This document shows, piece after piece, positions 2,974-50,275 of a stretch of 64,000 nucleotides of DNA. Under the pieces are notes generated by a model, which had not been told where the DNA came from, did not search any database, and saw only the letters and a list, made by a program, of their open reading frames with translations. How positions within the stretch are numbered: position 1 is the first letter of the stretch; each line of letters opens with the position of its first letter. This DNA is from Candidatus Uhrbacteria bacterium (GTDB lineage Bacteria > Patescibacteriota > Patescibacteriia > SG8-24). A program made the position numbers and the translations under genes. The stretch spans positions 26,918 to 90,917 of the forward strand of contig JAFGIV010000022.1 in NCBI GenBank assembly GCA_016929435.1. The letters are read 5' to 3'.

Positions 2974-3417
2974 CTATTCCTCTTCTTCGTCCAATGCCTC
3001 TGCGGACGGTTTCCCGGTGCAGATACCGTCCAGACTGAAATCACATACCGTGTTCACAGGACAATCACGGTCTGACCAACAAAATATCGCGCAGAAGTAT
3101 GGGGCGTTTCCGTAGGCGTCGGATATTACACATTGTTCCTCCCCGGGAACGATGTCGGGGCAGTTTTTTTCGTCGGCAAAACCGTATCGAAAGCACTGGG
3201 TAGAACAAAACCCGTACTCGTCAGAGACGAGTTTTACACATTTCTGGCCACTTTGGTCACCTTCCCCGTTATCACAGTCCCAGTCTGAATTGCAGGACTG
3301 CCCCCACAACGGGGCCTTGTCTTCGTCATCCTCGCCATCCCCCTGACATGCCATCGTCAACACCACCGACATGACCATTACTGCCATTGTCATCATAATC
3401 AACCCCATTTTTCTCAT
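2974..3417 (-). CDS. cysteine-rich secreted lipoprotein, member of a paralogous family
   Basis: Start adjusted to MRKMGLIMMTMAVMVMSVVLTMAC (signal peptide plus lipobox). RBS GGAGGG lies 7 nt upstream. About 16 Cys in 110 mature residues, homologous to the central module of the 4870..5796 product (...YGFCS..C...DCP...IC.G). Confidence 0.7.
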   Translation of the reverse strand: MRKMGLIMMTMAVMVMSVVLTMACQGDGEDDEDKAPLWGQSCNSDWDCDNGEGDQSGQKCVKLVSDEYGFCSTQCFRYGFADEKNCPDIVPGEEQCVISDAYGNAPYFCAIFCWSDRDCPVNTVCDFSLDGICTGKPSAEALDEEEE

Positions 3418-3483
3418 TACACACCCTCCTGTTGGGTTTTGGATGCCGCCGTTCGGCGGACACCATTTGTTAAAGACACCGAA

Positions 3484-3512
3484 ATGTTGACATAAATTTG
3501 GCCATCTGTCAA
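3484..3512 (-). promoter_or_regulatory. promoter of 2974..3417 gene (TTGACA-N17-CAACAT)
   Basis: -35 TTGACA (complement of 3507-3512), 17-nt spacer and a weak -10. The same architecture and downstream leader motif recur in the paralog promoters at 4760-4788 and 5862-5890. Confidence 0.4.
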
Positions 3513-3542
3513 GAGCCAAGAAGGTCAAGCGACAACCCGAAC

Positions 3543-3578
3543 AAAAAAGCGGGCGACCGACGGAAAGTCGGCGCCCGC
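3543..3578 (-). terminator. rho-independent terminator of the M8 protease gene
   Basis: Stem gcgggcgaccgac/gtcggcgcccgc with loop ggaaa, preceded on the + strand by A6, which is a T-run after the hairpin on the minus-strand transcript. Confidence 0.55.
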
Positions 3579-3616
3579 AAAAACAGTCAGAAAGAACAAT
3601 GCGAAGCGGTCAGCGG

Positions 3617-4696
3617 TCAAATTGTCCTGAACGGCAGGCGCCTAATGTCCTGCGTCAGGTCAAATACCTTGCCGACTCCCCGCCTTGAGAAGGCGGTTGA
3701 GAGGCTGAAAACGTCGGCAGCGCCGTAGTTAACGGCGTAACCGATATCCTCCATTGATCCTATGGTGACTATACTCACCGGCTCAAACGCCGATCCGGAA
3801 GTGAATCCGGTCATCGCCTCGACTCCAAAAACCGACTCCCTCCAGTGGCCGTCCTGGGTTCCGGCACCGTAATTTCCGTTCTCCACCGGAACCTTATGGC
3901 CATCATAATACGCCCCACCTACCTGCTCGAAAGCCGCCAACGCCTCGGTCCCAACGAAATGGGTATCAGCCCCCGGGTTGTAAAGGGAGGGGTTTTTGAG
4001 AAGACCCATGGCTTCCCAAAAAATACCGAATCCCAAGGAGTGTCCCATCTCGTGGAAAGCCACATTAGACAGGACGCCCTCCGCCAGCATCTGATCGGCA
4101 TCACTGTCATCTATGACGATGATGCTGACTGCCGGCAGAAGACTCGACCCTCGCCAAACGCAGGGGCCGGAATACCCCAAAATGCCTCCTGCCCCGTCAA
4201 TCGGGGCGATCTGGACAATTATTACGATATCGTCGATATCGTAGTCAATCCGGGGATGGGGTAACCCGTCACAGTATCCGGCCTCTATCGGGCTGGCGGA
4301 AAAACTGGCGGTCGGCAAATCTCCCACGATGATTCGCTCCCAACGAGCGGATGCCTCGTCGAAGGCGGATTCCGCGGACCTGCTGACTTGAGACACGAAA
4401 ATGAAATCAATATCGTATTCCCCACCTATGTCCGTATCCGCATCCGTATCGGTATCCGTATCGGCGTCCGCATCGGCATCAGCGTCAGCATCGGCATCCG
4501 AGCCGCCTAGGTCAACGCAGAACCCGGAAGCGCAGGTCAAATCCCCATCACAAGCCCCGCCTTCCGTGCACTGGCAGCCTTCGCTGCCGATCGCACAACC
4601 CCCTTCTCCGCTGCCCTCATCCTCATCACAGGCCGAAAGGCCAATCACCATCAGAAACATCGCCACGGACAGAATCGTTACGTTCAGGTTTTGCAT
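3617..4696 (-). CDS. leishmanolysin-like (peptidase M8 family) zinc metalloprotease lipoprotein with an N-terminal Cys-rich EGF-like module and a (DA)n/(DT)n linker
   Basis: Start at MQNLNVTILSVAMFLMVIGLSAC (lipobox) with RBS GGAGGGG upstream. HEMGHSLGF matches the M8 HExxHxxGF motif, with a distal His/Met-turn candidate (...DGHWRESVFGVEAMTG). N-terminal module C-x5-C-x-C-x5-C-x5-C-x4-C, then DADADADADADTDTDTDADTD. Confidence 0.6.
   Translation of the reverse strand: MQNLNVTILSVAMFLMVIGLSACDEDEGSGEGGCAIGSEGCQCTEGGACDGDLTCASGFCVDLGGSDADADADADADADTDTDTDADTDIGGEYDIDFIFVSQVSRSAESAFDEASARWERIIVGDLPTASFSASPIEAGYCDGLPHPRIDYDIDDIVIIVQIAPIDGAGGILGYSGPCVWRGSSLLPAVSIIVIDDSDADQMLAEGVLSNVAFHEMGHSLGFGIFWEAMGLLKNPSLYNPGADTHFVGTEALAAFEQVGGAYYDGHKVPVENGNYGAGTQDGHWRESVFGVEAMTGFTSGSAFEPVSIVTIGSMEDIGYAVNYGAADVFSLSTAFSRRGVGKVFDLTQDIRRLPFRTI
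4431..4500. repeat. hexanucleotide microsatellite (GTATCC/GCATCG-like units) encoding the (DA)n/(DT)n linker
   Basis: tccgtatccgcatccgtatcggtatccgtatcggcgtccgcatcggcatcagcgtcagcatcggcatccg. An imperfect 6-nt periodicity lies inside the M8 protease gene. Confidence 0.8.
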
Positions 4697-4759
4697 TTCA
4701 CCCCTCCTATGGGTATGTGGGCGTTCCATTATGGAAACGCCATTTTCAAAGACGCCGAC

Positions 4760-4788
4760 ACCTTAGCGCTGTTTGCGGTTTTTGTCAA
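4760..4788 (-). promoter_or_regulatory. promoter of M8 protease gene (TTGACA-N17-TAAGGT)
   Basis: Minus strand TTGACA aaaaccgcaaacagcgc TAAGGT, followed by the conserved leader GTCTTTGAAAATGGCG plus a hairpin. Confidence 0.5.
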
Positions 4789-4796
4789 GAGATACC

Positions 4797-4838
4797 GAGA
4801 AACAAAAGGCGGATACAGGAGAAAATCCAGTATCCGCC
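4797..4838 (-). terminator. rho-independent terminator of the 4870..5796 gene
   Basis: Perfect 9-bp stem ggcggatac/gtatccgcc with a 13-nt loop, followed on the minus strand by TTTTGTTTCT. Confidence 0.55.
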
Positions 4839-4869
4839 GTAACCAAGCCCGAACCAAAGAACGTGATAA

Positions 4870-5796
4870 TCAGCAGTCTTCCTCTATATCGACAAAGAAA
4901 TCTTCTGTAACCCCCGCGCAAAAGGGATAGTCGCAGAAGCCGTCCCCTACCCAATCACACGGATCGTCGGCACCGCAGGTGCAGGCATCATATACCAAAT
5001 CTTCACATGCGCCGTCGCATCCGCCATCTTCCCCAATATGAGATCCAGCACAAATGCTTATGCCTTCACTCATCCAATAGTGGCAATAACCGTCCGGACA
5101 ATCGGAATCGTCTTCGCATGATATGGAACAGAAGTCTGTACCACCATCGATCAACTCAACGAAGCAACCTTCCGTGCCGCTCCCCATATCTGTGCAATAG
5201 GGATCGAGATCGCCAGAATTGCAGCACTCCTTGGAACAAAACCCGTAACCATCAATCAAGATGCATGTCTGCCCAGCCGTACAATCATCGTTGGATAGAC
5301 AATCGCCTCCCCAATCCCCAGATACCGGTTCCGCATCGCATACTCCGCTACCACAATCGTCACTGTCATCGAACGGACTGGAGACGGCCTGAGAACAGTC
5401 CTCATCGCAGTACCCGTCACCGACCCAGTTGCAGGGGTCATCGGAACCGCAGGTGCAGGCATCATATACCAAATCTTCACAGGCGCCGTAGCACTCGTCA
5501 GCGTCACCGTCAGCATCGGTGTCGGTGTCCGTATCGGTGTCAGTGTCCGTATCGGTGTCGGTATCCGTATCGGTGTCGGTGTCCGTATCGGTGTCAGACC
5601 CCGGATTTCCCGGATCAACGCAACGACCGGAAGCGCACACTAAGCCCGGATCGCATCCACCGCCCGGGGTGCACTCGCACCCCTTATTGCCGACCTGGCA
5701 ATCATCATCCATTTCATCCCCCCGGCAACCGGGTGCAAAAAGGGCCATTATTGCCGCTACCGCCACGAACAACATCCCAATCGATAGTTTCTTCAT
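4870..5796 (-). CDS. cysteine-rich secreted lipoprotein with (DT)14 linker and internally duplicated Cys modules
   Basis: Start at MKKLSIGMLFVAVAAIMALFAPGC (lipobox) with RBS AGGAGGGG. The N-terminal module (CQVGNKGCECTPGGGCDPGLVCASGRCVD) is paralogous to the M8 protein N-terminus. Then (DT)14 DADGDADE; the module YGACEDLVYDACTCGSDDPCNWVGDGYCD is repeated near the C-terminus, and the central module is paralogous to the 2974..3417 product. Confidence 0.7.
   Translation of the reverse strand: MKKLSIGMLFVAVAAIMALFAPGCRGDEMDDDCQVGNKGCECTPGGGCDPGLVCASGRCVDPGNPGSDTDTDTDTDTDTDTDTDTDTDTDTDTDADGDADECYGACEDLVYDACTCGSDDPCNWVGDGYCDEDCSQAVSSPFDDSDDCGSGVCDAEPVSGDWGGDCLSNDDCTAGQTCILIDGYGFCSKECCNSGDLDPYCTDMGSGTEGCFVELIDGGTDFCSISCEDDSDCPDGYCHYWMSEGISICAGSHIGEDGGCDGACEDLVYDACTCGADDPCDWVGDGFCDYPFCAGVTEDFFVDIEEDC
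5497..5598. repeat. hexanucleotide microsatellite (GTGTCG/GTATCC-like units) encoding (DT)n
   Basis: About 17 tandem 6-nt units (gtcggtgtccgtatcggtgtcagtgtccgtatcggtgtcggtatccgtatcggtgtcggtgtccgtatcggtgtc). Confidence 0.85.
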
Positions 5797-9520: not shown

Positions 9521-9598
9521 GGTCCCATCGTCTAGCCCGGTCCAGGACGTCTCCCTCTCACGGAGAAAACAGGGGTTCGAATCCCCTTGGGACTACCA
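9521..9598 (+). tRNA. tRNA-Glu (anticodon CUC), CCA encoded
   Basis: Hand-folded cloverleaf: acceptor GGTCCCA/TGGGACT; anticodon stem TCTCC/GGAGA with loop CTCTCAC; T arm AGGGG-TTCGAAT-CCCCT. Closely resembles bacterial tRNA-Glu (GTCCCCTTCGTCTAG...CAGGGGTTCGAATCCCCT...). Confidence 0.85.
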
Positions 9599-9602
9599 GA
9601 AG

Positions 9603-9632
9603 CACTCACCGAATGGTGGGTGTTTTTATTTT
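9603..9632 (+). terminator. rho-independent terminator after tRNA-Glu
   Basis: Stem cactcacc/ggtgggtg (one G-U) with loop gaat, then TTTTTATTTT. Confidence 0.6.
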
Positions 9633-9694
9633 GTTCGCCTTTAAAAAACCGTGATATAGTTTTTGCGTAATCTAAGGCCTGTTTTCTTGGCTAT

Positions 9695-10081
9695 ATGTCT
9701 ATATCCATAAAAAATATTTTTACCGCCCATAACAATCGAAGCGCTTCTTTTCGGAAAAAAGCTCTTGGTTATTTTCTTGTCTTTCTGGGTGCGTTTCCAG
9801 CGGTTGCATTTGCTTTAGCCTTCGTATTTTGTTTGTTCTTTCCGAATAATCACCTGATGAGGACATACATCATGGTCGATTTTGCTCTTGTCGAAGTCGT
9901 TGGCCCTATGGCATACGTGTTGCTATTGCTGTTGGCTTTGGCTGTGTTTTCTGCGCCGTTTTTCCTGTTGGTCTATATTGGCTTTCTTCTTGTTGGTTCG
10001 AAGAAAAAGAAACCGTCGGGCCAAGCCGTGCTGTTCGCGGTGTTTGCCTATTTTATCTGCTTTTCCGTTTTTTTTTTCTGA
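9695..10081 (+). CDS. small polytopic membrane protein (3-4 TM), AT-rich islet
   Basis: Hydrophobic segments; stop TGA overlaps the next ATG (TGATG), so the two are translationally coupled. Confidence 0.5.
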   Translation: MSISIKNIFTAHNNRSASFRKKALGYFLVFLGAFPAVAFALAFVFCLFFPNNHLMRTYIMVDFALVEVVGPMAYVLLLLLALAVFSAPFFLLVYIGFLLVGSKKKKPSGQAVLFAVFAYFICFSVFFF

Positions 10082-10823
10082 TGACTGAGAATCTGAATAC
10101 GAAATTTGACAGGAAAGTCTCTGGAATGAAAAGTCTTAATACTGGAATCGGGCATCCTATCTTGCCCGAATTTGATGTCATTAACATTTCCAAGTATGTG
10201 AAGTACGATGACATTGTCATTTATCAGGGAGATAGCTACGGGTACAAGTATACGGGTGATGCCTATAGCCAGATCGCCTTGGACCTTGACGTTGAAGGTC
10301 GTACTCTGTTTGTCAGGCGCTCTGAGATGGAGACCTATGTCGTACTCTGTTTGTCAGGCGCTCTGAGATGGAGACCTATTACGATGTCGAAATAGGTCAT
10401 GTGAAGAACAGGTATCCTTTATACCCGGCCGGCACCAAGAAACTGACCATCGAAATCACCGTTCCTGACCTTGACCGCATCATTGTTGAGGGTGGACATG
10501 TCAGCCTAGAGGGTTTGGAAGTGAATGACCTGCGGATTGACCTAAATAAGCGGTTCGTTGAGCTGAAAGGGGATTTGGTGGTGAGAGACGGTTTTGTCCT
10601 GAATGCTAAAGGGGGAGTGGTAGATTTGGAGGGTTCCGCAAAAAACCTAGAAATAAATTCCGGGGACTGTTGGATTGATATGGAGAATTTTACGGCTGAG
10701 ACCGCCTCAATAAACGCCGTTAACACCAGTCGTTTGAACGTTTACGTAACGGAAAACATGGAGGTCATTTCCGGGGTTAATTCTGGGATAGTCAAACATT
10801 TCGATTTCCATCAGGAAGAGTAA
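10081..10823 (+). pseudogene. putative-adhesin/beta-helix-like (DUF2807/DUF4097-like) gene split into two ORFs (10081..10395 and 10368..10823) by a frameshifting 41-bp tandem duplication
   Basis: Removing one 41-bp copy joins ...GRTLFVRRSEMETY to YDVEIGHVKNRYPLY... in frame, giving a single 233-aa protein. Confidence 0.6.
10298..10379 (+). repeat. perfect tandem duplication, 2 x 41 bp (gtcgtactctgtttgtcaggcgctctgagatggagacctat)
   Basis: Copy 10298-10338 is identical to copy 10339-10379. 41 is not a multiple of 3, so the duplication causes a frameshift. Confidence 0.95.
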
Positions 10824-10841
10824 CCGTGTTTGAAAAGACGA

Positions 10842-10953
10842 CGTTCCAGCACGAAAAGCACTACCACCCGCATCCAGCACGGGGAGGCTGTCTCCAATAG
10901 CTGGAGACGGCCTTTAAAGCCTCGAAACAAAAACACCCGAAAGGGTGTTTTTG
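10842..10953 (+). repeat. intergenic palindromic repeat element copy A (~110 bp: hairpin GGCTGTCTCCAatagcTGGAGACGGCC plus terminator CACCCgaaaGGGTG-T5)
   Basis: ~88% identical to copy B (13580..13691); the core palindrome also occurs at 12390..12428. Sits 19 nt after a stop codon. Confidence 0.85.
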
Positions 10954-11118
10954 TGTGCTGGGTTATTTTAATTGCGAAGGGGGGGTGCTTTATGGTATTG
11001 TGCAAATAACATATTTCAATCTAGAAAATAATTTTCGCTTCGTTAGTGGCGGTGCTTTATATCGTTATTCGAAGCTATGTCGAGGGAATTATTAATAATA
11101 TACTTAACCATTGCAAAT

Positions 11119-11724
11119 ATGAAAAATAATATTTTTATTAGAGTGATGTTGGCCACAATGGGCCTCTTTTCTCTATCTTTGTTCTTTTTGGTCTCCAATG
11201 TATACGCATATGTAGCAAGTGGATACACCCGCCCTTCAGGAAACGTAAGTTTTTACTTGCATGGCGCACTGGTGAATGTGGGGTGGCAGGGAGCGATAGA
11301 CAACGCTCGTAGCGAATGGAACGGGGCAGGATCTTCCTTTACGTTCTCTCAAAGCGGTACCGCTACAAGAAGCCCGAGCTTGGTTCAAAGCAGCACGACT
11401 GATGGGTATAACGACATCGGAGCACTTTCGTTGGACCTCAGTTATGTTGGATTTACATCTTCTGTTGCTAGTGGAACATCGATCATTGAAACGGACACAG
11501 CTTATAACTTGGAGAAGTCCTTTGATGTAAATCCGAATATTTATCAGTATGATGTTGAGAGTGTTGCTGTACATGAATTGGGCCACTGGTTACATTTGGA
11601 CGAAACACAGTCGTGGCGATGCTTTGCGTCTCCGCCAAGTATGTGCGGATCAGTTTCTATGGGGAGCACATATATGCGTTCTATAGAATCCGACGACATT
11701 AACGGCATTCAATATATCTATTAA
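11119..11724 (+). CDS. secreted metzincin-like zinc metalloprotease (snapalysin M7 / matrixin M10-like)
   Basis: Signal peptide MKNNIFIRVMLATMGLFSLSLFFLVSNVYA. Zinc motif VAVHELGHWLHLDE, a Cys pair, Met-turn candidate STYM and C-terminal DDINGIQYIY (matrixin DDIxGIQxLY signature). Confidence 0.6.
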   Translation: MKNNIFIRVMLATMGLFSLSLFFLVSNVYAYVASGYTRPSGNVSFYLHGALVNVGWQGAIDNARSEWNGAGSSFTFSQSGTATRSPSLVQSSTTDGYNDIGALSLDLSYVGFTSSVASGTSIIETDTAYNLEKSFDVNPNIYQYDVESVAVHELGHWLHLDETQSWRCFASPPSMCGSVSMGSTYMRSIESDDINGIQYIY

Positions 11725-11725
11725 T

Positions 11726-12337
11726 ATGAAGAAAACAACATTAATTGTAGCGGGATTGGCGGTTATAGTGTCTCTTACGACGCTGATGTACGGACTTGAT
11801 GGCAAAGACCAGGGAGGCAGCGCAACCCCACAGGGCGACGGAACGAGATTGTTGGTCAATGCCTTGCGTACAGAGCCTGATTTTAGGGTTGATACCCTTG
11901 ATTCCAGTATGATAGTTCAGGGGGAGGTGATTGCGGTCGATGAACTGTCTGACCAACCCTTAAGCCACAATACGCGTATAACCATTTCTGTCGACCAGTT
12001 GATTAAGGGGGATGATGTCAGCGAAACGATAGAGGTTTATGCGTTAGGTGGCGGCGGTGTAGAGGTTGTAGGAGATAACGAGAAAATAGGTCTTGTTGCA
12101 GGTGACGTCGGCATTTTCTTCCTTGGTTGGATGCCTGTGTCTGAAGGGTTCTACACATTTTTTGGCGGTTCAAGGGGCGTTTATGTTGAAAAGGACGCAC
12201 ATATTCGTAATTGGGGTGGAAAATCAATTAAAACTGATAGGTTTGTGCGCGAGATTGAGAAAGTGCTAGCTGACCCTGATGATAGAGAACATCAAAAGAC
12301 TTTGGGAGAGATGATCCGTGATAAGGAGTCTGAATAG
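11726..12337 (+). CDS. secreted partner protein P1 (signal peptide; paralogous to 12898..13527)
   Basis: MKKTTLIVAGLAVIVSLTTLMYG signal peptide; starts 1 nt after the protease stop. Shares the core ...V.G.VI......V.V...IKGD....TV...GG with the P2 paralog. Confidence 0.5.
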   Translation: MKKTTLIVAGLAVIVSLTTLMYGLDGKDQGGSATPQGDGTRLLVNALRTEPDFRVDTLDSSMIVQGEVIAVDELSDQPLSHNTRITISVDQLIKGDDVSETIEVYALGGGGVEVVGDNEKIGLVAGDVGIFFLGWMPVSEGFYTFFGGSRGVYVEKDAHIRNWGGKSIKTDRFVREIEKVLADPDDREHQKTLGEMIRDKESE

Positions 12338-12389
12338 AAGGTGTAAGAGGATACTACTTTTTCTTGGGACTACCACTTACATAAAGCGC

Positions 12390-12428
12390 GAGGAGGCCGT
12401 CTCCAATAGCTGGAGACGGCCGTTAGGG
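12390..12428 (+). repeat. repeat element copy C (core palindrome only, perfect 11-bp stem GGCCGTCTCCA atagc TGGAGACGGCC)
   Basis: Identical core to copy A. Lies immediately upstream of, and truncating, the second protease ORF; an in-frame TAG sits inside the repeat. Confidence 0.8.
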
Positions 12429-12430
12429 TC

Positions 12431-12895
12431 TTGTTGGTTACGCCTTTAGGTTCTGCGCTTGCTTGTTCCCAGGATTCATTGTTTTGGACTAGCGCCGTTG
12501 ATAGCGGGGAGATACGTTGGGGCGGTTCCACAAAGTATTCGTGGGAGTGGCAAGATGCGAGGGGTGCATGGAACCAGTTGAGTCCCGTTGATATTCTTCC
12601 TGATACAATATACACATATGAGGATTTAAAAATTTCGGACGTTGACAGCCATTACTTGGGATATTGGGGGGCATACATTCCTTCGTTGGGGACTGATGAT
12701 TTGGAGCTTAATGAATATTTTATGGATGGGGGCTCATACGGAAACAGGGCACATATCGTCTCTCATGAACTTGGCCGTGCTTTAGGTCTCGACCATGTTG
12801 ATGGTTGCGATCATGTGATGGATGATTATCAATATTGCACTTCAGTCACACCGTCATCAAACGATGAATGTAGCTACGATGAATTATGGAACTAG
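12431..12895 (+). CDS. degenerate paralog of the metzincin-like protease (5'-truncated, no signal peptide, zinc-motif H->R); possible pseudogene
   Basis: The ORF begins at TTG with no upstream ATG, and an in-frame stop lies in the repeat just upstream. Motif HIVSHELGRALGLDHVDGCDH is snapalysin-like HExGHxLGLxDH, but the second His is Arg (CGT where His would be CAT). Confidence 0.5.
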   Translation: MLVTPLGSALACSQDSLFWTSAVDSGEIRWGGSTKYSWEWQDARGAWNQLSPVDILPDTIYTYEDLKISDVDSHYLGYWGAYIPSLGTDDLELNEYFMDGGSYGNRAHIVSHELGRALGLDHVDGCDHVMDDYQYCTSVTPSSNDECSYDELWN

Positions 12896-12897
12896 GG

Positions 12898-13527
12898 ATG
12901 AAAGGCAAAATTATAGGCGGGGGGGTACTGCTTCTTGGCGTGCTGGGTATTGGTCTTCACGCTAATGTTTTGAGGGTGCCGGGTATTGTTAACCAGGTTG
13001 GCACTGTTGCAATCGCTAACTTTTCGGATGATGCCGAACTCGTAGGAGCGGCACATAACGTTTTTGTTGGTAAGGTAATAAAGAAACAGGACAGCTTTGT
13101 TGAGGGCAGGCTTGCCTTCACTCCTTATGAGGTTGTCGTCCTTTCCAATATCAAAGGTGATTTAGAAGGAACGGTAACGGTCCTTCAAAATGGGGGGTAT
13201 AAAGATGGGTTCTTGCAAATCTTGCATGATTCCGAATCGCCTGATGGGAGACTTCCATTTCCTGAAGTCAATCAATTATATCTGTTTTCAAGCAGACATA
13301 ATGTTGAGGCCGATGTCCACTACCTTCTTCCTACGATTCATGCTATGGAAAAGGTGAGTTCGAATACAGAATTTGGTGCCCAGGCTGACATTGCCGCCAT
13401 AACCAAGAGTGTTCGCATAGAAGAGCTGAGGGAAGCATATAAAAATGAGGTAGTTCCTTTGGCGGATAGGGAGCACGGTAGTGATTTCAATAGCTACAAT
13501 AAAACTGTACCGCAAAAGATTGAGTAG
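12898..13527 (+). CDS. secreted partner protein P2 (paralog of P1)
   Basis: Start chosen at MKGKIIGGGVLLLGVLGIGLHA (signal peptide), 3 nt after the upstream stop. Similar to P1. Confidence 0.5.
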   Translation: MKGKIIGGGVLLLGVLGIGLHANVLRVPGIVNQVGTVAIANFSDDAELVGAAHNVFVGKVIKKQDSFVEGRLAFTPYEVVVLSNIKGDLEGTVTVLQNGGYKDGFLQILHDSESPDGRLPFPEVNQLYLFSSRHNVEADVHYLLPTIHAMEKVSSNTEFGAQADIAAITKSVRIEELREAYKNEVVPLADREHGSDFNSYNKTVPQKIE

Positions 13528-18407: not shown

Positions 18408-18872
18408 TTATTGTGTCCGACCGCGGTTCCCTCCAGCACCCCGGTCCCCTTCCCGGGAGTCGGTTCGCTGATTGCCCTTAGGGTGACGGGTTCCCCCCCC
18501 GTTTTCCAGGTTGGCGAAAAGGGCACAGTTTTTACCGTCATCCGACAGGATATAGGAATAGAGGGTCCGTTCGTCACTCCCGCCGTTGGGGTCCCGCGGA
18601 ACCCTGGGGATCATGGCCTTGGCCTGCGGATACCTGGCCGTCAGCTCCCCGAACAGGTCGGCCAAATCGTATGTCCCGGGTCCTCCGTCCGGACTGTAGC
18701 AGGAACCGCCGGCCATGAACCGGCCGATCTGGGCCAGTTCAAGCTTCCGCCTGGAATCCCGGGCCTTCCGCCGGACCGATCCGGTAGCCGCCAGGACCAC
18801 GGTCGCCAAGACGGCGACGATGCCGACCGTGACCAACAGCTCGATTACGGTGAAACCCCTTTTTCGGCGCAT
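18408..18872 (-). CDS. type IV pilin / pseudopilin-like protein (prepilin N-terminal methylation motif)
   Basis: MRRKRGFTVIELLVTVGIVAVLATVV is the class III signal peptide G|FTxIE plus hydrophobic helix. The 3' end carries a G8 homopolymer (complement of 18493-18500), so the C-terminus is uncertain. Confidence 0.7.
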   Translation of the reverse strand: MRRKRGFTVIELLVTVGIVAVLATVVLAATGSVRRKARDSRRKLELAQIGRFMAGGSCYSPDGGPGTYDLADLFGELTARYPQAKAMIPRVPRDPNGGSDERTLYSYILSDDGKNCALFANLENGGGTRHPKGNQRTDSREGDRGAGGNRGRTQ

Positions 18873-18875
18873 ACG

Positions 18876-19436
18876 TCAATAGTCAATCCCTTCCCTGGCC
18901 GGGGTGCCTTCCCGGAAATAGTGTTTGGTGTCGTTGATCTCGCTGACCAGGTCGGCCAAACCGATGATGTCCGGAAACGCCCCGCGGCCGGTCAGGACAA
19001 GCTCCGATTCCGGGCGTTTTTTCTCGATCAGGGCCAGGATGCCCTCCAGCCCAAGCAGGCCGATCCGGACGGCCGTTACCGCCTCGTCCAGTATCACCAG
19101 ATCGAAACGCGGATCGGCGACCGTCTCCCCGGCCAGGTCCAATCCGCGACGGGCCTCGGCCAGGTCCTCCGTTCCGTTCCCGAACCGAAAACGGCCACCC
19201 TCGGAAAAATCCGCCCGTACGGATCCGGTCACCCAATACTCGACATCCGGCTTCAGCCGATCCAGGGCCTTCCGCTCCGAATACCGTTCCCCGCCCTTGT
19301 CGAAAAAGACGATGCCGACCCTCTTGCCGGCCCCCACCGCCCGAAGCGCCAGGCCCAAGGCCGCCGTGGTCTTTCCCTTCCCGTTGCCGGTGTAGACGTG
19401 AACCATCCCCGGCGTTTTCCCGTCTGGCGTTCCCAT
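18876..19436 (-). CDS. cobO: cob(I)yrinic acid a,c-diamide adenosyltransferase (CobO/CobA/BtuR family)
   Basis: VHVYTGNGKGKTTAALGLALRAVGAGKRVGIVFFDKG is the P-loop signature of ATP:corrinoid adenosyltransferases. The true start may be the internal MVHVY. Confidence 0.8.
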   Translation of the reverse strand: MGTPDGKTPGMVHVYTGNGKGKTTAALGLALRAVGAGKRVGIVFFDKGGERYSERKALDRLKPDVEYWVTGSVRADFSEGGRFRFGNGTEDLAEARRGLDLAGETVADPRFDLVILDEAVTAVRIGLLGLEGILALIEKKRPESELVLTGRGAFPDIIGLADLVSEINDTKHYFREGTPAREGIDY

Positions 19437-19441
19437 GGCGG

Positions 19442-20005
19442 CTACCTGACCAAATAATCCCGGAGCAGCCGAACGGCCTTTCCCCGATGGCTGATCCCGT
19501 TCTTTTCCTCCCTGTCCATTTCGGCGAAAGTCTTAGTCCGCCCTTCGGGCCGGAAGACCCGGTCCCAACCGAAATCGCTTTCGCCCCGCGGGGCGACGAT
19601 CGTCCCCCTGGTGATGCCCTCGAAAAAACGGGTGTCTTTTGGACCGCAGGCCAAACCGATCGTCGTGCGGGCTTCGGCGCCATAGACGCCAAAACGATCT
19701 GCCAATTGCCACAGACCCTCCTGGCCGACGGTCTTCACGAACCACTTGACCAACGGTCCCGGCAAACCGGGCTGATCGGGCGATGCGCTTAGGCAATCGA
19801 GAAACAGGCTGGTATCCTCTACGATAAGTCCCCCCTCCTGGCCGTGCCGCATTGCCTCCCGCAGCTTCGCCTCAATGACCGCCTTCGGATCAACCTCCTG
19901 TATCTCCGGCAAATCAATGTCCACCTGCTCAAGAACGCCGTCGCCCACGATGGCGACAACCTCCGCAAACTTATGCCTGGAGCCGGTGATGAATTTCACG
20001 GACAT
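19442..20005 (-). CDS. rdgB: non-canonical purine NTP pyrophosphatase (RdgB/Ham1, dITP/XTP pyrophosphatase)
   Basis: KFITGSRHKFAEV... with the C-terminal SHRGKA motif typical of the Ham1 family. Confidence 0.8.
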   Translation of the reverse strand: MSVKFITGSRHKFAEVVAIVGDGVLEQVDIDLPEIQEVDPKAVIEAKLREAMRHGQEGGLIVEDTSLFLDCLSASPDQPGLPGPLVKWFVKTVGQEGLWQLADRFGVYGAEARTTIGLACGPKDTRFFEGITRGTIVAPRGESDFGWDRVFRPEGRTKTFAEMDREEKNGISHRGKAVRLLRDYLVR

Positions 20006-24825: not shown

Positions 24826-25980
24826 CTAACGGACCTCCACCCTGATGTTGTCGGCCACGGTCGGCAGGCGGACGGCCCAAAACGGGGAAAGCCGGACCGA
24901 GGCCGAAGCGACTCCCTTGACCTGCTCCAGGTATTCGACGGCCGCCTCACCGGTCACGCCAGCCAGTTTTGCCGGGTCAAGGGCCGGGGAATCCTCGGAC
25001 AGGACGGCGTTGCCCATGGCCGATACCCGCAGGTTGGCCCGACCGCCGGCCAGGTCGGCCTTCTCCAGCTCAATGACCGTGGCCTTTTCCTCCATTCCCG
25101 CCAAACGGCGGCCGAAAGGAACGATTTCCCTGACCTTGGCCTCCGCCAAACGGTCGAGCTGGTTCCGGTCAAAGAATACCCCTACTGCCTTCACGGTAAC
25201 GGTCACCGAAAAACTCTCGGCCTCCTCCCCTACCGCCGGGGAGGAATGGCGGTCGGACATGACCGCCTGAATCGCCTCCCCGCTGACCGGCAGGCCACCG
25301 GCCAAAGCCTCCTTTCGCATCCGTTCGGTCAGGTCCCTGACCAGGTCGGATTTCAGCTGGGCAACCGCCACCTCAAAATCGGCGTTCCCGACCACCCTAA
25401 GGTCCCGAACGCCGCCGGAAACCGGCTCCACCGTTTCCACGGAAAACCTCTCCCGCAGGACCGGATTCAGTCCGGGAATGGTGAACGTCGAGTCTCCGAT
25501 GTCGTTCCCCGGACCGGTCCCGTCGGAAAATATGCCCACTTCCACCGAACCCAAGGCCGGAACCGTCACCTGATCCTTGATCCGAAACAGCATGCCGTTA
25601 CGGTCCAGCAGGCGGGTGGTGGCGACCAGTGTCTGGGGACTGGCCAGGCGACTTGTTATCCTGACCCGACCCTCGGCATGGCCTTCCACCCGGGAAACCA
25701 CGGCGGTCGGAAAGGTTCGGGTAGCGGTATCGGTCAGGGAAAGGACCGTCCCGGACAGTTCCCCGCCTCTCGGCTGCCGGGAAACGTCCGCAATGAACTC
25801 GGCCCGAATCTCCTCCTGCCGGGACAGGACTATGACCGTGGCCTTGGCCCAAACGACATAGAACACCAGGGCAGCCACGGCCAGGGTCATTATGACGAAA
25901 ACCGTGGCCAAACGCCGATATAGCGCCAGGTGGGTCGGCGGCAATTCCGAGAACGGCCGGTTTTGGGGCGGATAGTCCAT
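24826..25980 (-). CDS. membrane-anchored hypothetical protein
   Basis: Single N-terminal TM helix (LATVFVIMTLAVAALVFYVVWA) and a large extracytoplasmic domain. Confidence 0.45.
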   Translation of the reverse strand: MDYPPQNRPFSELPPTHLALYRRLATVFVIMTLAVAALVFYVVWAKATVIVLSRQEEIRAEFIADVSRQPRGGELSGTVLSLTDTATRTFPTAVVSRVEGHAEGRVRITSRLASPQTLVATTRLLDRNGMLFRIKDQVTVPALGSVEVGIFSDGTGPGNDIGDSTFTIPGLNPVLRERFSVETVEPVSGGVRDLRVVGNADFEVAVAQLKSDLVRDLTERMRKEALAGGLPVSGEAIQAVMSDRHSSPAVGEEAESFSVTVTVKAVGVFFDRNQLDRLAEAKVREIVPFGRRLAGMEEKATVIELEKADLAGGRANLRVSAMGNAVLSEDSPALDPAKLAGVTGEAAVEYLEQVKGVASASVRLSPFWAVRLPTVADNIRVEVR

Positions 25981-26675: not shown

Positions 26676-29600
26676 CTATCCCCCCAACACCGCCCCCCGA
26701 CCGACCACTCCCTCCACCTCCCGAATGAAATCCCCGGAAAATGCGATCCGAAAACTGGTGTCGATGCTCTTTTCCGTTCCGTCCGGCTCTTGGGTCACCA
26801 GGACGACCCGCCGGTTTCCGGGATGTTCGGCCAAGACCCGCTTCATCTCCTCGGCGAAAACCTTGGTCATGGTGGCCGGTACGGCGATCCGGACGATTTC
26901 CGCCTCATGTGCCATGGCGTCGCCGCCGGACGGAGGGGCGCCATCCGGCGAATACATCGCCAACCGATCCCGAAGCTCCGCTGACGTCTCCGGATCGATC
27001 GGATAGAGACGCTCCAGGAGCAGGCTATCCTCCCCTTCCCGGTCCTGGTACTTGACCTCGGCGATGACCGCCCCCTCCTGGGCTATGATTTCCCGATACT
27101 CCTTATATGACCTGGGAAACACGACCATTTCGGACGGACCGCTCATGTCCTCCAGCCGGCAGAAGGCCATCTGATCCCCCTTCTTGGTGGTGATCTCGTG
27201 GACGTTGGTGATGTATCCGCCGACCCGCAGCAATCCCGGCTGCCTGAAGGACACCTCCTTGACCCGCTTCAGGGGCGTCAGCAGCCTGCCGAAAAATTCC
27301 GAATAGTCCTTGAAGGGGTGTTCGGAGACGTAAAGGCCCAAGAGCTCCTTCTCCCAAGCCAACCGCTCCCGCTTGGTGGCCGGAGGCACCTCCCTCATGG
27401 ACAGCTCGGCCTTCGGAACGTCCAGGGCCCCCTGCCCGAATATGCTGGACTGCCCGGACTCGGCGTCATGCCGCGCCTTCCTGTGGTAGGCCAGGATGGC
27501 GTCCATGCTGGCCAGCATCCGGTTCCGTTCGCCGAGCGAATCCATGGCTCCGGCCTTGATCAGGGACTCCAGGGCCCGCTTATTGAAGCCCTTGGTGCTG
27601 ACGCGGCCTGCCAGTTCGGCGATGCTCCCGAACGGGCCGTTTTTATTCCTCTCGTCCAGGATTTCGGCTATGGAATCCGATCCGAGATTCTTGATCGCCT
27701 TCAGCCCGAACCGGATCGTTCGGTCGTCGATGTACGTGAACTCGGCCAGGGAGGAATTGACGTCCGGAGGCAGGACGGCGATTCCCAGGCGGACACACTC
27801 CTGGACCGCATCGGCCACGGTCTCGATGTCCCCCGATTCGCAGGTCATGAGTGCGGCCATGTACTCGGCCGTATAGTTGGCCTTCATGTATCCGGTCCAA
27901 TAGGACACGACGGCATAGGAGGCGGAATGGGACTTGTTGAAGCCGTAGGCGGCAAACGGGACGATCAGCTCCCAGAGCTCGTCGGCCCGCTTCCGGGACA
28001 GCCCCCCGGCGACGCAACCGTCCTTGAACTTTGGCTCCTGCTTGGCCATTTCCGCCGGAATCTTCTTTCCCATCGCCTTCCGGAACTTGTCTGCCTCATC
28101 CCAGTTGTACCCGGCCAGGGTGATGGCCGACATCATGATGTCCTCCTGGTAGATGAGCATCCCCAGGGAGGCCTTCAGCAGGTCCTCCATCCTGGGGTCG
28201 ATCGGGACGATGAGCGACGGGTCATGCTTGCGGCGGATGTATTCCGGAATGTTGGCGATCGGACCCGGACGGTAAAGGGCAACCATGGCCGCCAAGTCAA
28301 AAATCGTCGTCGGACGGAGTTCCGTCAGGTACTTGGTCATCCCCGAGCTGGCGAACTGGAAGACACCCATGGTTTCGCCCCTGGCCAGCATCTCATAGGT
28401 CCTGGCGTCGTCGTACGGCAGGGATACCAAATCGATATCCACCCCCTTGGTGCCCCTGACCATATCCACCGCCTTTCCCAGGATCGAAAGGTTCCGTATC
28501 CCCAAAAAGTCCATCTTCAGGACCCCGGCATCCTCAACCGCATGCATGTCGAATTGGGTGATCAGCTTCTCCCCGCCCGCCTCCCTCTGTAGGGCCATGT
28601 ATTCGGTCAGCGGCCTGTCGGCGATGACCACGCCGGCGGCATGGACGGAAACGTGTCGGGCGCAACCCTCTATTTTCTGGGCCAATTCCAGGAGACGGGC
28701 GACCTGCGGATCGTCGTCGGACATCTCCTTCAGCTCGTTGCACTCCTCCAGGGCCCGGGCGATGGTCATGGCAAAACCCTGCGATCCCATGGGGATGGTC
28801 TTGGCGATCCGGTCGACGAACCCGAGCGGGTAGCCCAAGGCCCGACCAACGTCACGGACTGCCCCTCGGGCGGCCATGGTGCCGAAGGTACCGATCTGGG
28901 CGACATGGTCATGCCCGTACTTACCGGTGACATAGGCGATCACCTCATCCCGGCGGTCATCGGCGAAATCGGCATCGACATCGGGCGGCGAGGGCCGGAA
29001 AGGGTTCAGGAACCGCTCAAACGGCAGCTTGAAAAAAAGAGGGTCAATGGAGACGATGCCGACGGCATAGCCGACCAGCGAACCGGCCGCCGAACCGCGG
29101 GTATGGGAGACGATTCCCTGTCGCCTGGCCCAAATCATGTAATCGGCGACAACCAGGAAGTATTTGGAGTAGCCCTTCTGGTCCAATATCCCCAACTCGT
29201 AATCCAGCCGCTCCGTCTCATCCTCGGTCAGTTTCCGTCCCCGCTTGGACTCCAAGCCGCCGTAGGCCAACTCCCGCAGGTAGGAGGAGGGGTCGTGGCC
29301 TTCGGGAATGTCGAACCTGGGGAAGTTCCACTTGCCCAAATCCAGCCGCAGGTCACACCGCTCGGCGATCCTCACCGTATTTTCCACCGCCTCCGGACAG
29401 TCGGCGAAGGCCCTGGCCATGTGGTCCCCGTCCACGAACGAATAGTCCACGCCGGTCATCCGGTGGCGGTCGTCCTGGTCAACGGTCTTTCCGGCCCCGA
29501 TGCAGATCAGTAGGTCGTGCGGTTCGGAATCCTCCGGATTGAGGTAATGGACATCCTTAGTCGCCACCACGGGAATGTCCAGCCTTTTCCCCAACTCGAT

Positions 29601-30176
29601 AAGGTCGCGGTTCCGGGCCACCTGTTCGTCCATCTCCGGATGGTCCACCAGCTCCAGGAAAAAGTTTCCCTTACCCATGATACTCTCGTATTCCGCAGCC
29701 AACCGTTCGGCCCTTTCCCAGTCGTTCATCTCCAGGGACTTGCAGATGTCGCCCCGCAAGCCTCCGGAAAGGCATATCACCCCCTGGGCATGCCGCCCCA
29801 ACAGTTCCTTGTCAATCCGGGGCTTGTAGTAGAAGCCCTCAAGGTGTGCGGCGGTCGTCATTTTCAGGATATTCCTGTATCCAACCTCGTTTTCCGCCAA
29901 AAGGACCAGGTTGTGGGGCCGATCGTCGATCCGCGGCCGCCTGTCGGTCATCCGGTTCTGGGCCAGATAGGCCTCCACCCCGATGATCGGCTTGATTTCC
30001 TGCTTGAGGCATTCCTTGTAGAACTCAATGGCCCCATAAACCGCCCCGTAGTCGGTAATGGCCAAGGCCGTCATCCCCAACTCCTTTGCGCGCCTGACCG
30101 CATCCCTGACCTTCGGTAGTGCCTGAAGCAGGGAGTAGTGGGTATGGTTATGGAGATGGACGAAGGGGGCGGGCAT
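26676..30176 (-). CDS. dnaE: DNA polymerase III alpha subunit
   Basis: N-terminal PHP domain (HLHNHTHYSLLQA...) and polymerase core; 1166 aa. Confidence 0.9.
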   Translation of the reverse strand: MPAPFVHLHNHTHYSLLQALPKVRDAVRRAKELGMTALAITDYGAVYGAIEFYKECLKQEIKPIIGVEAYLAQNRMTDRRPRIDDRPHNLVLLAENEVGYRNILKMTTAAHLEGFYYKPRIDKELLGRHAQGVICLSGGLRGDICKSLEMNDWERAERLAAEYESIMGKGNFFLELVDHPEMDEQVARNRDLIELGKRLDIPVVATKDVHYLNPEDSEPHDLLICIGAGKTVDQDDRHRMTGVDYSFVDGDHMARAFADCPEAVENTVRIAERCDLRLDLGKWNFPRFDIPEGHDPSSYLRELAYGGLESKRGRKLTEDETERLDYELGILDQKGYSKYFLVVADYMIWARRQGIVSHTRGSAAGSLVGYAVGIVSIDPLFFKLPFERFLNPFRPSPPDVDADFADDRRDEVIAYVTGKYGHDHVAQIGTFGTMAARGAVRDVGRALGYPLGFVDRIAKTIPMGSQGFAMTIARALEECNELKEMSDDDPQVARLLELAQKIEGCARHVSVHAAGVVIADRPLTEYMALQREAGGEKLITQFDMHAVEDAGVLKMDFLGIRNLSILGKAVDMVRGTKGVDIDLVSLPYDDARTYEMLARGETMGVFQFASSGMTKYLTELRPTTIFDLAAMVALYRPGPIANIPEYIRRKHDPSLIVPIDPRMEDLLKASLGMLIYQEDIMMSAITLAGYNWDEADKFRKAMGKKIPAEMAKQEPKFKDGCVAGGLSRKRADELWELIVPFAAYGFNKSHSASYAVVSYWTGYMKANYTAEYMAALMTCESGDIETVADAVQECVRLGIAVLPPDVNSSLAEFTYIDDRTIRFGLKAIKNLGSDSIAEILDERNKNGPFGSIAELAGRVSTKGFNKRALESLIKAGAMDSLGERNRMLASMDAILAYHRKARHDAESGQSSIFGQGALDVPKAELSMREVPPATKRERLAWEKELLGLYVSEHPFKDYSEFFGRLLTPLKRVKEVSFRQPGLLRVGGYITNVHEITTKKGDQMAFCRLEDMSGPSEMVVFPRSYKEYREIIAQEGAVIAEVKYQDREGEDSLLLERLYPIDPETSAELRDRLAMYSPDGAPPSGGDAMAHEAEIVRIAVPATMTKVFAEEMKRVLAEHPGNRRVVLVTQEPDGTEKSIDTSFRIAFSGDFIREVEGVVGRGAVLGG

Positions 30177-48422: not shown

Positions 48423-49112
48423 ATGCGAAAGGCCCCAATATTCCCCATCCTGACCGTCATGTTGGCCGTGGCCGTACTGGCCATCCACTACCTTTCGGTT
48501 CGGATGATCGATACGAAAGGTTCCGAAACGAATCCGGATGTCGGTTCCCCTACTCCGCTGGAGATGCCGACGATCGTCTTCGGCAACCCGATGGTCGGAA
48601 ACAACTCCGCCAGGGTGACGATCGTGGAATTCAGCGATTACCTCTGCGGACCGTGCGGATCCCTGGACCAGACCCTAACACGGCTGGCCGGCGAGTATCC
48701 GAACGACGTCCGGTTGGTCTGGAAGGATTTCCCGAACGAGAAGAGCCATCCCGGATCGGTTGAGGCGGCCATGGCCGCCCGCTGTGCCGCCGATCAGGGG
48801 GCCTTTTGGGAATATCACCGGGCGATCTTCAGCGACCAGACCGGCCTGAATACGGACGGTTACGTCCAGATCGCCGATTCCCTTGGCCTGGACACCGAAA
48901 AGTTCCGGAACTGCCAGGAAAACCGGCTGTCCGAACCGCTGGTCAGGCGGGACCTGGAGGAAGCCCTCCGGCTTCGCCTTGATGCCACCCCCTACATCTT
49001 CGTGAACGACCGGAGACTCTCCGGCGCCCTGAGCTACGAGATACTGAAGAGCATCGTGGACGGGGAGATCAGCGAATCGCTGCGGACCGAAAACGCCCCC
49101 TCCGGCCTATGA
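48423..49112 (+). CDS. DsbA-like thiol:disulfide oxidoreductase (thioredoxin fold)
   Basis: N-terminal TM helix plus a CGPC active site. Confidence 0.65.
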   Translation: MRKAPIFPILTVMLAVAVLAIHYLSVRMIDTKGSETNPDVGSPTPLEMPTIVFGNPMVGNNSARVTIVEFSDYLCGPCGSLDQTLTRLAGEYPNDVRLVWKDFPNEKSHPGSVEAAMAARCAADQGAFWEYHRAIFSDQTGLNTDGYVQIADSLGLDTEKFRNCQENRLSEPLVRRDLEEALRLRLDATPYIFVNDRRLSGALSYEILKSIVDGEISESLRTENAPSGL

Positions 49113-50275
49113 CAAAAACCCTCAAGAAAACGGCGGTCATCGCGCTGGCCACGGCGGCCATCGTCTGGCTGGCGGCCCTTTCCCCCACCCCTCCGGCCCT
49201 GGCCCAATCCGGTGACAAGAACTTCCTGGAACGGGCCGTCGATGCGGTCACTCCGGGGGACGTCAAGCCGAGGCTGACGGTCGATATCCCGACGGTCAAA
49301 TTCTCCGACGTCATCGTCCATGATGACCGGATCGACATCCCCTGGCTGGCCGAGTACATCTCCGGCCTATACAAGTATGCCCTGGGGATCGGTTCGCTGC
49401 TGGCGGCGGTGATGATGGTGATCGGCGGGTTCATCTACCTGACGGCCGGGGATTCCAGACGGACCGGACAGGCTAAGGAGATGATCACGGACTCTATCCT
49501 GGGCCTCAGTGTCCTCATCGGATCGTATGTCCTCCTGAACGCCGTCAACCCGGACCTGACCAGACTGGACGCACTACAGATAGTCAATGTCAATCCGGAA
49601 AAATTCATCGTGGAAAATCCCGGGGGGATGGATGAGGGAACCGATCCGGATCCCAATGTCGACTACAGCGGAAAACCCGTCCCCACCAAAGGAACGGCTC
49701 CATCCGGTTCGGATATCTACGATGACATCTTCAAGCGATATGCCGGTTGTGCCGGTGTGGATTGGCGGGTTCTAAAGGCGGTCGCAAAGAAAGAAAGCGC
49801 CTTTCGATCCGATCTGGTAAACAAATTCGGCTTCATCGGCCTTTTCCAGACAAAGCCCAGTTTCTGTTCGCTCAAGCGTTACGGTCGGGCCGAAGACTGC
49901 ACTTACGAAAAATTGGCTGATCCGGAAATAAATACCGCATCAGCCGCCGGTGGCCAGCTTAAGAACGCCACCAACACGATTAGGACCAAATGTCCGAACA
50001 TCAAAGATACCGACACTTTCGTCATGCTGATGTATTTCGGACACAACAGCGGCAACGGTGCCCTGAAATCCGTACTTGACGATGTCGGATGCAACGGAAC
50101 AAGAGAGGACTATTACGAGGGCGGAAAAAACTTCTGGATGAAACAGGCGGAAAGAAAGGGGACGGAACCAATTCACAATTATGACAAACGGATGCAATAC
50201 GCATCGAAAGTGGCCGATGCGGCAAAAAGCTACGGGGTGACGGAACCGATCGTACCTGGACCGTGTCCACTATAG
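49109..50275 (+). CDS. membrane-anchored lytic transglycosylase (SLT-domain) protein
   Basis: Signal peptide, two closely spaced TM helices, then AKKESAFRSDLVNKFGFIGLFQ (catalytic ES...G-[LF]-Q motif of the SLT family). Confidence 0.5.
   Translation: MTKTLKKTAVIALATAAIVWLAALSPTPPALAQSGDKNFLERAVDAVTPGDVKPRLTVDIPTVKFSDVIVHDDRIDIPWLAEYISGLYKYALGIGSLLAAVMMVIGGFIYLTAGDSRRTGQAKEMITDSILGLSVLIGSYVLLNAVNPDLTRLDALQIVNVNPEKFIVENPGGMDEGTDPDPNVDYSGKPVPTKGTAPSGSDIYDDIFKRYAGCAGVDWRVLKAVAKKESAFRSDLVNKFGFIGLFQTKPSFCSLKRYGRAEDCTYEKLADPEINTASAAGGQLKNATNTIRTKCPNIKDTDTFVMLMYFGHNSGNGALKSVLDDVGCNGTREDYYEGGKNFWMKQAERKGTEPIHNYDKRMQYASKVADAAKSYGVTEPIVPGPCPL

Follow-up and report, generated by a model that had tools for sequence, protein, structure and literature searches.

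A compact leishmanolysin-type (M8) metalloprotease with a predicted lipoprotein leader in Candidatus Uhrbacteria

Introduction

GP63, the leishmanolysin of Leishmania major (PDB entry 1LML; MEROPS family M8), has a propeptide and a glycosylphosphatidylinositol (GPI) anchor. Bacterial proteins annotated as leishmanolysin-related zinc metalloendopeptidases occur in the Gemmatimonadales, Longimicrobiales, Calidithermus/Thermaceae, Trueperaceae and Polyangiaceae. Here we analyse a gene on the minus strand of a 64,000-nucleotide stretch of Candidatus Uhrbacteria DNA (contig JAFGIV010000022.1, positions 26,918 to 90,917; hereafter the window, whose coordinates are used throughout). The evidence strongly supports its product, referred to below as the target protein, as a leishmanolysin-type (M8) metzincin of a compact bacterial form of about 270 aa. 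The target protein is only 16-19% identical to GP63; with the bacterial proteins it aligns end to end at 40-49% identity (E down to 1e-64) and has all invariant residues in common.

Results

Assignment of the catalytic domain to family M8

A Pfam scan of the target protein placed a single family above its cut-off, Peptidase_M8 (PF01457), with 37.4 bits against a gathering score of 21 (E 1.6e-9) and a match spanning profile positions 165-336 of 529. GP63 (1LML) was recovered by phmmer over all PDB sequences (E 0.0034), in an alignment that sets HEMGHSLGFG (residues 215-224) opposite HEMAHALGFS and pairs HEMGH with the HEMAH of GP63 (His264, Glu265 and His268; GP63 residue numbers are chain index + 99). 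An initial sequence-only reading of this DNA had called the protein an M8 protease and had pointed to a distal histidine and a Met-turn candidate downstream of the HExxH motif, and both proposals are borne out: His284, the predicted third zinc ligand, aligns with GP63 His334, and Met295 with GP63 Met345. The second and third histidines are separated by 65 residues in the target (His219 to His284) and by 66 in GP63 (His268 to His334). These positions suggest a site in which zinc would be bound by His215, His219 and His284, with Glu216 serving as general base.

The structural comparison gives the same assignment. An AlphaFold2 model of the catalytic domain, built with 121 homologues, reached a mean predicted local distance difference test score (pLDDT) of 94.1 and a predicted template modelling score (pTM) of 0.93, and in a Foldseek search 1lml was the sole match at E<=1e-3 (E 6.7e-9, template modelling score 0.67 normalised to the query). 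The model reproduces the fold of the N-terminal plus central domains of GP63. The roughly 185-residue C-terminal domain of GP63 is absent, the target ending about 64 residues past the Met-turn, and the catalytic domain comprises 270 aa in the target against 465 in the crystal chain. Neither a propeptide nor an unpaired switch cysteine is visible in the target sequence.

We also considered whether the protein might belong to a different metzincin or zincin family (M10, M12 reprolysin, M6, M64 or metallo_LGF) and bear only a superficial likeness to M8. Peptidase_M10 did appear in the Pfam scan, at E 0.17 and 12.2 bits against a cut-off of 24, as did Reprolysin_3, at E 0.21 and far under its cut-off, and NCBIfam metallo_LGF scored 15.3 bits against a cut-off of 80. 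These matches do not extend beyond the HExxH helix, and score and fold both led us to reject M10, M12 and metallo_LGF. In matrix metalloproteinases (M10) the third histidine stands at +6 (HExxHxxGxxH), whereas the corresponding ligand of the target is 65 residues distant, and the +6 position after HExxHxxG is not a histidine. No other HExxH clan scored better than M8 in the profile search, and the distal histidine and Met-turn were retained in the alignment with GP63; membership of another family is accordingly improbable in the extreme.

Conservation across the family bears on whether the domain is an active enzyme. Invariant columns were taken from alignments of 26 and 121 family members (in domain numbering, to which 89 is added for protein numbering) and comprise D67, D78-G79, D107, D110, H126-E127, H130, G133, W138, G160, P181, H195-W196-R197 and E204. 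The target retains all 16 of the 16 columns that are invariant across the 121 members, together with the near-invariant C53, C90 and M206 (at least 90% conserved), the last of which is Met295. A catalytically dead protease fold acting as an adhesin or binding module would be in keeping with the two adjoining Cys-rich acidic lipoproteins, which have no enzymatic domain, and with the resemblance of the acidic stalk preceding the domain to the serine-aspartate (SD) repeat stalks of adhesins, reflected in weak, low-complexity NCBIfam matches to ClfA and Sdr. Pseudo-enzymes, however, normally lose residues of the kind that are all kept here (H, E, H, G, HWR, E204 and Met), and we regard a dead fold as very unlikely.

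Distribution and architecture of bacterial relatives

A word-indexed search of 5.8 billion proteins returned 721 matches to the target at E<=1e-3, the best at E 3e-62 and 45% identity. Wherever the source name was informative it read 'leishmanolysin', 'Leishmanolysin' or 'leishmanolysin-related zinc metalloendopeptidase', the remainder being labelled 'hypothetical protein' or 'PKD repeat protein', and the organisms named were Gemmatimonadales and Calidithermus. Most of these proteins carry PF01457, often behind Big_1, Big_2, PKD, PPC or ricin domains. With phmmer over 1.84 billion representatives clustered at 50% identity, 6133 matches were obtained at E<=1e-3, 4449 at <=1e-10 and 1569 at <=1e-30, the closest being only 49% identical to the target. 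The sequence-only reading had described bacterial M8 homologues as uncommon, a view refuted by this number of clusters, mostly from Gemmatimonadota and in part named by NCBI. The compact bacterial M8 subfamily is thus large, already named by NCBI and covered by Pfam.

A scan of GTDB species genomes with the pattern HEMGHVLG located 80 loci, mostly in Gemmatimonadota, with others in Trueperaceae, Thermaceae, Polyangiaceae and one metagenome-assembled genome labelled 'Deltaproteobacteria'. This pattern cannot match the HEMGHSLG of the target or sequences close to it, and the scan is uninformative on absence from genomes of the Candidate Phyla Radiation (CPR). No CPR member was found among the named relatives of the target, in a survey that is incomplete. 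The literature searched yielded neither a characterised bacterial M8 enzyme nor a paper linking leishmanolysin to the CPR or to Gemmatimonadota.

Examination of the 262 best family members revealed a lipobox-like N-terminus in 100 of the 201 that start with Met. The usual plan of the family is therefore a lipid anchor, then a spacer, then the M8 domain, and the sequence-only reading, which had judged the architecture of the target unusual, does not stand in this respect. It does stand for the composition of the spacer: the six-cysteine (6-Cys) module found in the target was present in none of the 262, and only one of them had a weak Asp-X repeat. As read from these sequences, a spacer made of a 6-Cys module and a D-A/D-T stalk is unusual within the M8 family.

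The lipoprotein leader and its acidic stalk

Upstream of the catalytic domain, all elements named in the sequence-only reading can be read in the open reading frame (ORF), including the lipobox, the Cys-rich N-terminal module and the acidic repeat stalk, with lipidation itself a prediction. The lipobox pattern [LVI][ASTVI][GAS]C follows a hydrophobic h-region at residues 11-23 (...VAMFLMVIG-LSAC), and the leader of the neighbouring ORF2 runs in parallel (MKKLSIG...LFAPGC). The target protein is therefore predicted to be a bacterial lipoprotein, processed by signal peptidase II and lipidated at Cys23. The stalk was detected by regular expression and by Tandem Repeats Finder, which reported a period of 6 and 11.7 copies. 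Both the signal peptide and the stalk have pLDDT <50 in a full-length AlphaFold model, and the stalk is predicted to be disordered. Of the nine cysteines in the target, one belongs to the lipobox, six to the module and two to the conserved pair of the catalytic domain, with none left unpaired; the module would form three disulfides and Cys142-Cys179 a fourth.

The 6-Cys module and its relation to EGF

A second copy of the 6-Cys module is present in ORF2, and the leaders of the two proteins are 43% identical (BLASTP, E 6e-10). Querying a word-indexed protein search with an alignment of these two leaders yielded no candidates. The module was then sought across metagenome contigs with a degenerate DNA pattern for GCxCxxGGxCDxxxxCxxGxC, which matched 75 contigs and gave no match in 100 shuffles of the window. 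Positions left free by the pattern (C1, G7, T14, G22 and L23) are still conserved in 55-65 of 70 module copies, and this conservation outside the fixed positions indicates that the 6-Cys module is a real homologous module, with the consensus CP[VI]G[SA]EGCxCTxGG[GA]CDPGLxCxxGxCV. The metagenome copies usually lie behind a lipobox, are often in tandem and are flanked by GDGDGDPT-type or Ser/Thr-rich linkers. Domains found in the same proteins include MYXO-CTERM (7), myxo_disulf_rpt (6), DUF4215 (6), Peptidase_M23 (3), SpoIID (3) and Amidase_2 (2), and the median GC of the loci is 0.69. Neither an M8 domain nor an HExxH motif occurs in any of the 75 proteins recovered with the module, one from each contig. 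The module can thus be described as a leader or spacer domain that is promiscuous, uncurated and found mostly with myxobacterial hallmarks.

The sequence-only reading had labelled this module EGF-like. The EGF pattern, C-x(4-14)-C-x(3-8)-C-x(4-14)-C-x-C-x(8-14)-C, has its C-x-C between the fourth and fifth cysteines, and in the target module the C-x-C falls between the second and third. Pfam and NCBIfam gave no match to the module at E<=10, either within the protein or in isolation, and no EGF-type match. An hhalign comparison of a 51-sequence module profile with a 6-sequence EGF profile returned a probability of 2.5%. In the full-length model, where the alignment depth over the module was two sequences, the module has pLDDT 75-80 and one beta-hairpin at residues 54-61. 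As a statement of homology, the EGF-like label is unsupported.

Gene boundaries and start codon

The stop and start bounding the ORF in the sequence-only reading were both recovered (Table 1). Two in-frame ATG codons are available, at 4696 (359 aa) and at 4729 (370 aa), and both lead to an identical mature protein. A Shine-Dalgarno GGAGG lies 6 nt 5' of the ATG at 4696, with none at 4729, and the identical 359-aa product was called from the 4696 start on a separately assembled Logan contig. The start at 4729 prepends MERPHTHRRGE and creates an Arg-rich n-region (two Arg). The start codon is ambiguous between the two. Exact-sequence look-up of the 359-aa and 370-aa forms at NCBI found no accession; by numbering one would be expected between MBN1585550 and MBN1585554.

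Table 1. Coordinates of the M8 lipoprotein gene, its parts and adjoining features in the window
Feature	Position	Strand	Residues	Description
Target gene, leishmanolysin-like lipoprotein precursor	3617..4696	-	1-359	359 aa, complete ORF; stop codon 3617-3619
Signal peptide	4628..4696	-	1-23	Lipobox L20-S21-A22-C23, read from sequence
Cys23, predicted lipidated residue	4628-4630	-	23	Lipobox position
Acidic linker	4598..4627	-	24-33	DEDEGSGEGG; read from sequence, pLDDT <50 in full-length model
6-Cys module	4517..4597	-	34-60	CAIGSEGCQCTEGGACDGDLTCASGFC; spacing C-x6-C-x-C-x5-C-x5-C-x4-C
Acidic dipeptide stalk	4430..4501	-	66-89	SDADADADADADADTDTDTDADTD; (D-A)6(D-T)3 D-A D-T D
Compact M8 catalytic domain	3620..4429	-	90-359	270 aa; equivalent to GP63 N-terminal + central domains
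Zinc/catalytic motif	4028..4054	-	215-223	HEMGHSLGF; aligns with GP63 HEMAHALGF
Predicted third zinc ligand	3845..3847	-	284	His in GHWRE
Met-turn	3812..3814	-	295	Met in EAMTG
Conserved cysteine pair, putative disulfide	4160..4273	-	142, 179	Cys142 (4271-4273), Cys179 (4160-4162)
Terminator-like hairpin with T-run	3554..3570	-		47 nt past target stop; consensus scan only, weak
ORF3, small Cys-rich acidic lipoprotein	2974..3417	-		Lipobox LTMAC; GC3 0.59; 140-aa NCBI version MBN1585550.1 'hypothetical protein'
ORF2, Cys-rich acidic lipoprotein	4870..5796	-		Leader cassette as in target: lipobox, 6-Cys module, (DT)n stalk; GC3 0.56
ORF2 (D-T)n stalk equivalent	5509-5598	-		Motif scan
ORF2 copy of 6-Cys module	5620-5700	-		
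Promoter-like site ahead of ORF2	5890-5862			Strong; consensus match only

Genomic context and host lineage

The target gene lies between ORF3 and ORF2 in a three-gene lipoprotein block (2974-5796, all on the minus strand) with a GC content of 0.51-0.57 and a GC content at third codon positions (GC3) of 0.56-0.63. The flanking genes with Pfam assignments, encoding GrpE, HrcA, prohibitin, YidC, ArsR, a DUF2617 protein and a response regulator, have GC3 values of 0.72-0.82, and an unassigned ORF beyond GrpE (1056-1367) has a GC3 of 0.41. On one side hrcA-grpE lies within 200 bp of the block, and on the other prohibitin and a 228-aa YidC lie within about 500 bp; GC3 in these immediate neighbours is 0.76-0.82. 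The atypical GC3 of the three genes suggests an inserted or fast-evolving surface-protein islet. Pfam and NCBIfam scans gave no family match for ORF3.

A further Cys motif, CEDLVYDACTCG(S/A)DDPC(N/D)WVGDG(Y/F)CD..., occurs twice in ORF2, at 4918-5007 and 5395-5481 on the minus strand. Between the two copies lie CxxDxDCxxG motifs, with a weak NCBIfam match to Myxo_Cys_RPT (E 0.012). A Notch/LNR reading of these repeats, based on likeness by eye, was dropped for want of Pfam support.

The host is Candidatus Uhrbacteria (Patescibacteria/CPR). Exact NCBI matches from a Candidatus Uhrbacteria metagenome-assembled genome, on a contig of 98,934 bp, were found for GrpE (MBN1585548), prohibitin (MBN1585554), YidC (MBN1585555) and DnaE (MBN1585575), and the named relatives of DnaE, at 50-70% identity, are all Uhrbacteria, Patescibacteria or Parcubacteria. 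The content of the window also fits Patescibacteria, with its short YidC, a short HrcA, a class II ribonucleotide reductase, PBP2, a Mur ligase and a T4SS-pilin/SLT protein. The window DnaE (26676-30176, 1166 aa) is intein-free and lies 22 kb from the target gene; several Uhrbacteria/Patescibacteria DnaE homologues are of about 1360-1595 aa and have intein/LAGLIDADG domains (PF14528, PF14890).

Such a host assignment would not extend to the protease if the contig were chimeric or mis-binned and the gene belonged to a Gemmatimonadota or Myxococcota genome, a scenario that gains some plausibility from the nearest named relatives being in Gemmatimonadota, Deinococcota and Myxococcota, from the myxobacterial hallmarks that accompany the module elsewhere and from a block GC3 that is atypical for the contig. 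The 2.8-kb block is, however, closely flanked on both sides by genes of the host: GrpE, prohibitin and YidC are exact Uhrbacteria matches (HrcA is unmatched), and the relatives of DnaE are all Patescibacteria. ORF2, the target gene, ORF3 and hrcA also lie on one contig in the separate Logan assembly. The GC content of the block is below that of its surroundings, whereas Gemmatimonadota or Myxococcota DNA would be higher, as in the GC-rich module-bearing loci, and a best identity of 49% is not that of a recent contaminant copy. Chimerism would require two junctions within 3 kb, and the link between the block and hrcA recurs in a separate assembly, so we give chimerism only a slim chance. Recent transfer from Gemmatimonadota or Myxococcota was likewise rejected, with identity at most 49% and block GC and GC3 below, not above, those of the host.

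Other features of the window

A low-GC island at 9521-13527 directly 3' of a tRNA-Glu gene (9521-9598) has a GC content of 0.43-0.47 and a GC3 of 0.43-0.45, against 0.75-0.8 in housekeeping genes. It contains two matrixin-like Peptidase_M10 ORFs on the plus strand, at 11077-11724 (27.1 bits, cut-off 24) and, weakly, at 12431-12895 (17.5 bits), and a DUF2807 adhesin-head ORF at 10368-10823. This region looks like a tRNA-linked genomic island with a second set of metzincins in the window. At 49109-50275 (+), an ORF combines T4SS_pilin and SLT lytic transglycosylase domains, which fits a conjugation or type-IV-like surface apparatus. Three further ORFs have no Pfam match at E<=0.01, at 18411-19457 (+, 348 aa), 24826-25980 (-, 384 aa) and 51981-54245 (+, 754 aa).

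Discussion

Taken together, these results make it very probable that the Uhrbacteria gene encodes a surface-tethered, secreted M8 zinc metalloendopeptidase, anchored by a lipid and mounted on a module and stalk. The protein would be exported by the Sec pathway, lipidated at Cys23 and relieved of its signal peptide, and would thereby be tethered to the outer face of the cell membrane. A 6-Cys module knotted by disulfides and an acidic (DA/DT) stalk that is disordered may keep the catalytic domain off the membrane and, by analogy with SD-repeat stalks, the stalk may act as a spacer projecting the enzyme through the cell wall. Catalysis would rely on zinc held by His215, His219 and the distal His284, on a water molecule activated by Glu216 and on the Met-turn at Met295 beneath the metal. 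Since neither a propeptide nor an unpaired switch cysteine is visible, folding alone probably suffices to make the enzyme active, with no zymogen step.

Several observations weigh against this interpretation. The last 27 or so residues are of low confidence in the model, and the C-terminus is about 12-15 residues short of that of most relatives. The n-region from the ATG at 4696, the start with the Shine-Dalgarno sequence, is MQNLN and has no Lys or Arg. The GC3 of the block leaves room for a recent, possibly poorly expressed acquisition. In the searchable literature we found no biochemical characterisation of any compact bacterial M8 member, and for the target the substrate and the biological role are pure inference.

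As to that role, the tethered enzyme would likely degrade extracellular or host-surface proteins, for peptide acquisition or for remodelling the surface of a partner. The same enzyme could instead process the cell's own envelope or secreted proteins. The leader module is fused elsewhere to cell-wall enzymes (Peptidase_M23, SpoIID and Amidase_2), suggesting placement in the envelope, and the gene adjoins hrcA-grpE and yidC, which serve protein quality control and insertion. This adjacency to housekeeping genes nevertheless looks incidental, given the distinct composition of the block and its own promoter-like and terminator-like sites. The family is also patchy in distribution, and its fusions to Big_1, Big_2, PKD and ricin domains of the adhesion type are typical of enzymes that face outward. 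We consider processing of the cell's own proteins a minority prospect, though one with an appreciable chance of being right.

A wider scenario can be sketched, which we put forward as speculative and rather unlikely as a whole. Genome-reduced and presumably host-dependent Uhrbacteria would have gained a surface-lipoprotein island horizontally, and a GP63-like protease on an otherwise myxobacterial-type leader would cleave host or partner proteins for attachment, nutrient release or immune-like evasion, with the tRNA-Glu-linked low-GC island and its two M10-like metzincins belonging to the same repertoire. If true, this would constitute a bacterial parallel to the lipid-anchored GP63 on Leishmania, with the protease mounted on a leader cassette that is otherwise characteristic of predatory Myxococcota.

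Proteases of the leishmanolysin type are not peculiar to eukaryotes: the compact form of about 270 aa is abundant in bacteria, chiefly in Gemmatimonadota, and the target is a divergent member of it in a CPR bacterium. Few clues exist to how CPR organisms live with or off other cells, secreted enzymes being among them, and a protease predicted to be lipid-tethered and stalk-mounted may reasonably be put forward as a factor in host interaction or scavenging, and one that is tractable for expression. No Pfam or NCBIfam model covers the 6-Cys module, which could be curated as a new domain family and whose carriers are probably myxobacterial secreted proteins.

Comparison with known systems places the target protein between several of them. 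GP63 is anchored through a C-terminal GPI, whereas the target has an N-terminal bacterial lipobox, and the compact form without the C-terminal domain and cysteine switch of GP63 is common to the whole bacterial subfamily. Many of the bacterial relatives are also lipoproteins with an N-terminal spacer, which in them consists of Big_1, Big_2, PKD, PPC or ricin domains and in the target of the 6-Cys module and the acidic dipeptide stalk; their consensus around the zinc-binding helix is HEMGHVLG[IFYLV], against HEMGHSLGF in the target. In the stalk, the target resembles the staphylococcal Clf/Sdr proteins, microbial surface components recognizing adhesive matrix molecules (MSCRAMMs) whose SD stalks likewise place acidic dipeptide repeats between anchor and functional domain (NCBIfam compositional matches, E 0.04-0.14). 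This likeness is compositional only, the target repeats being D-A/D-T and not S-D, lying N-terminal to the functional domain and extending over 24 residues. The Myxococcota-like 6-Cys lipoproteins match the target in their Cys framework, in conserved Gly, Thr, Asp and Leu residues, in the placement of the module after the lipobox and in acidic or Ser/Thr-rich linkers, but they have no M8 domain and are encoded in GC-rich loci, whereas the host of the target is a Patescibacterium.

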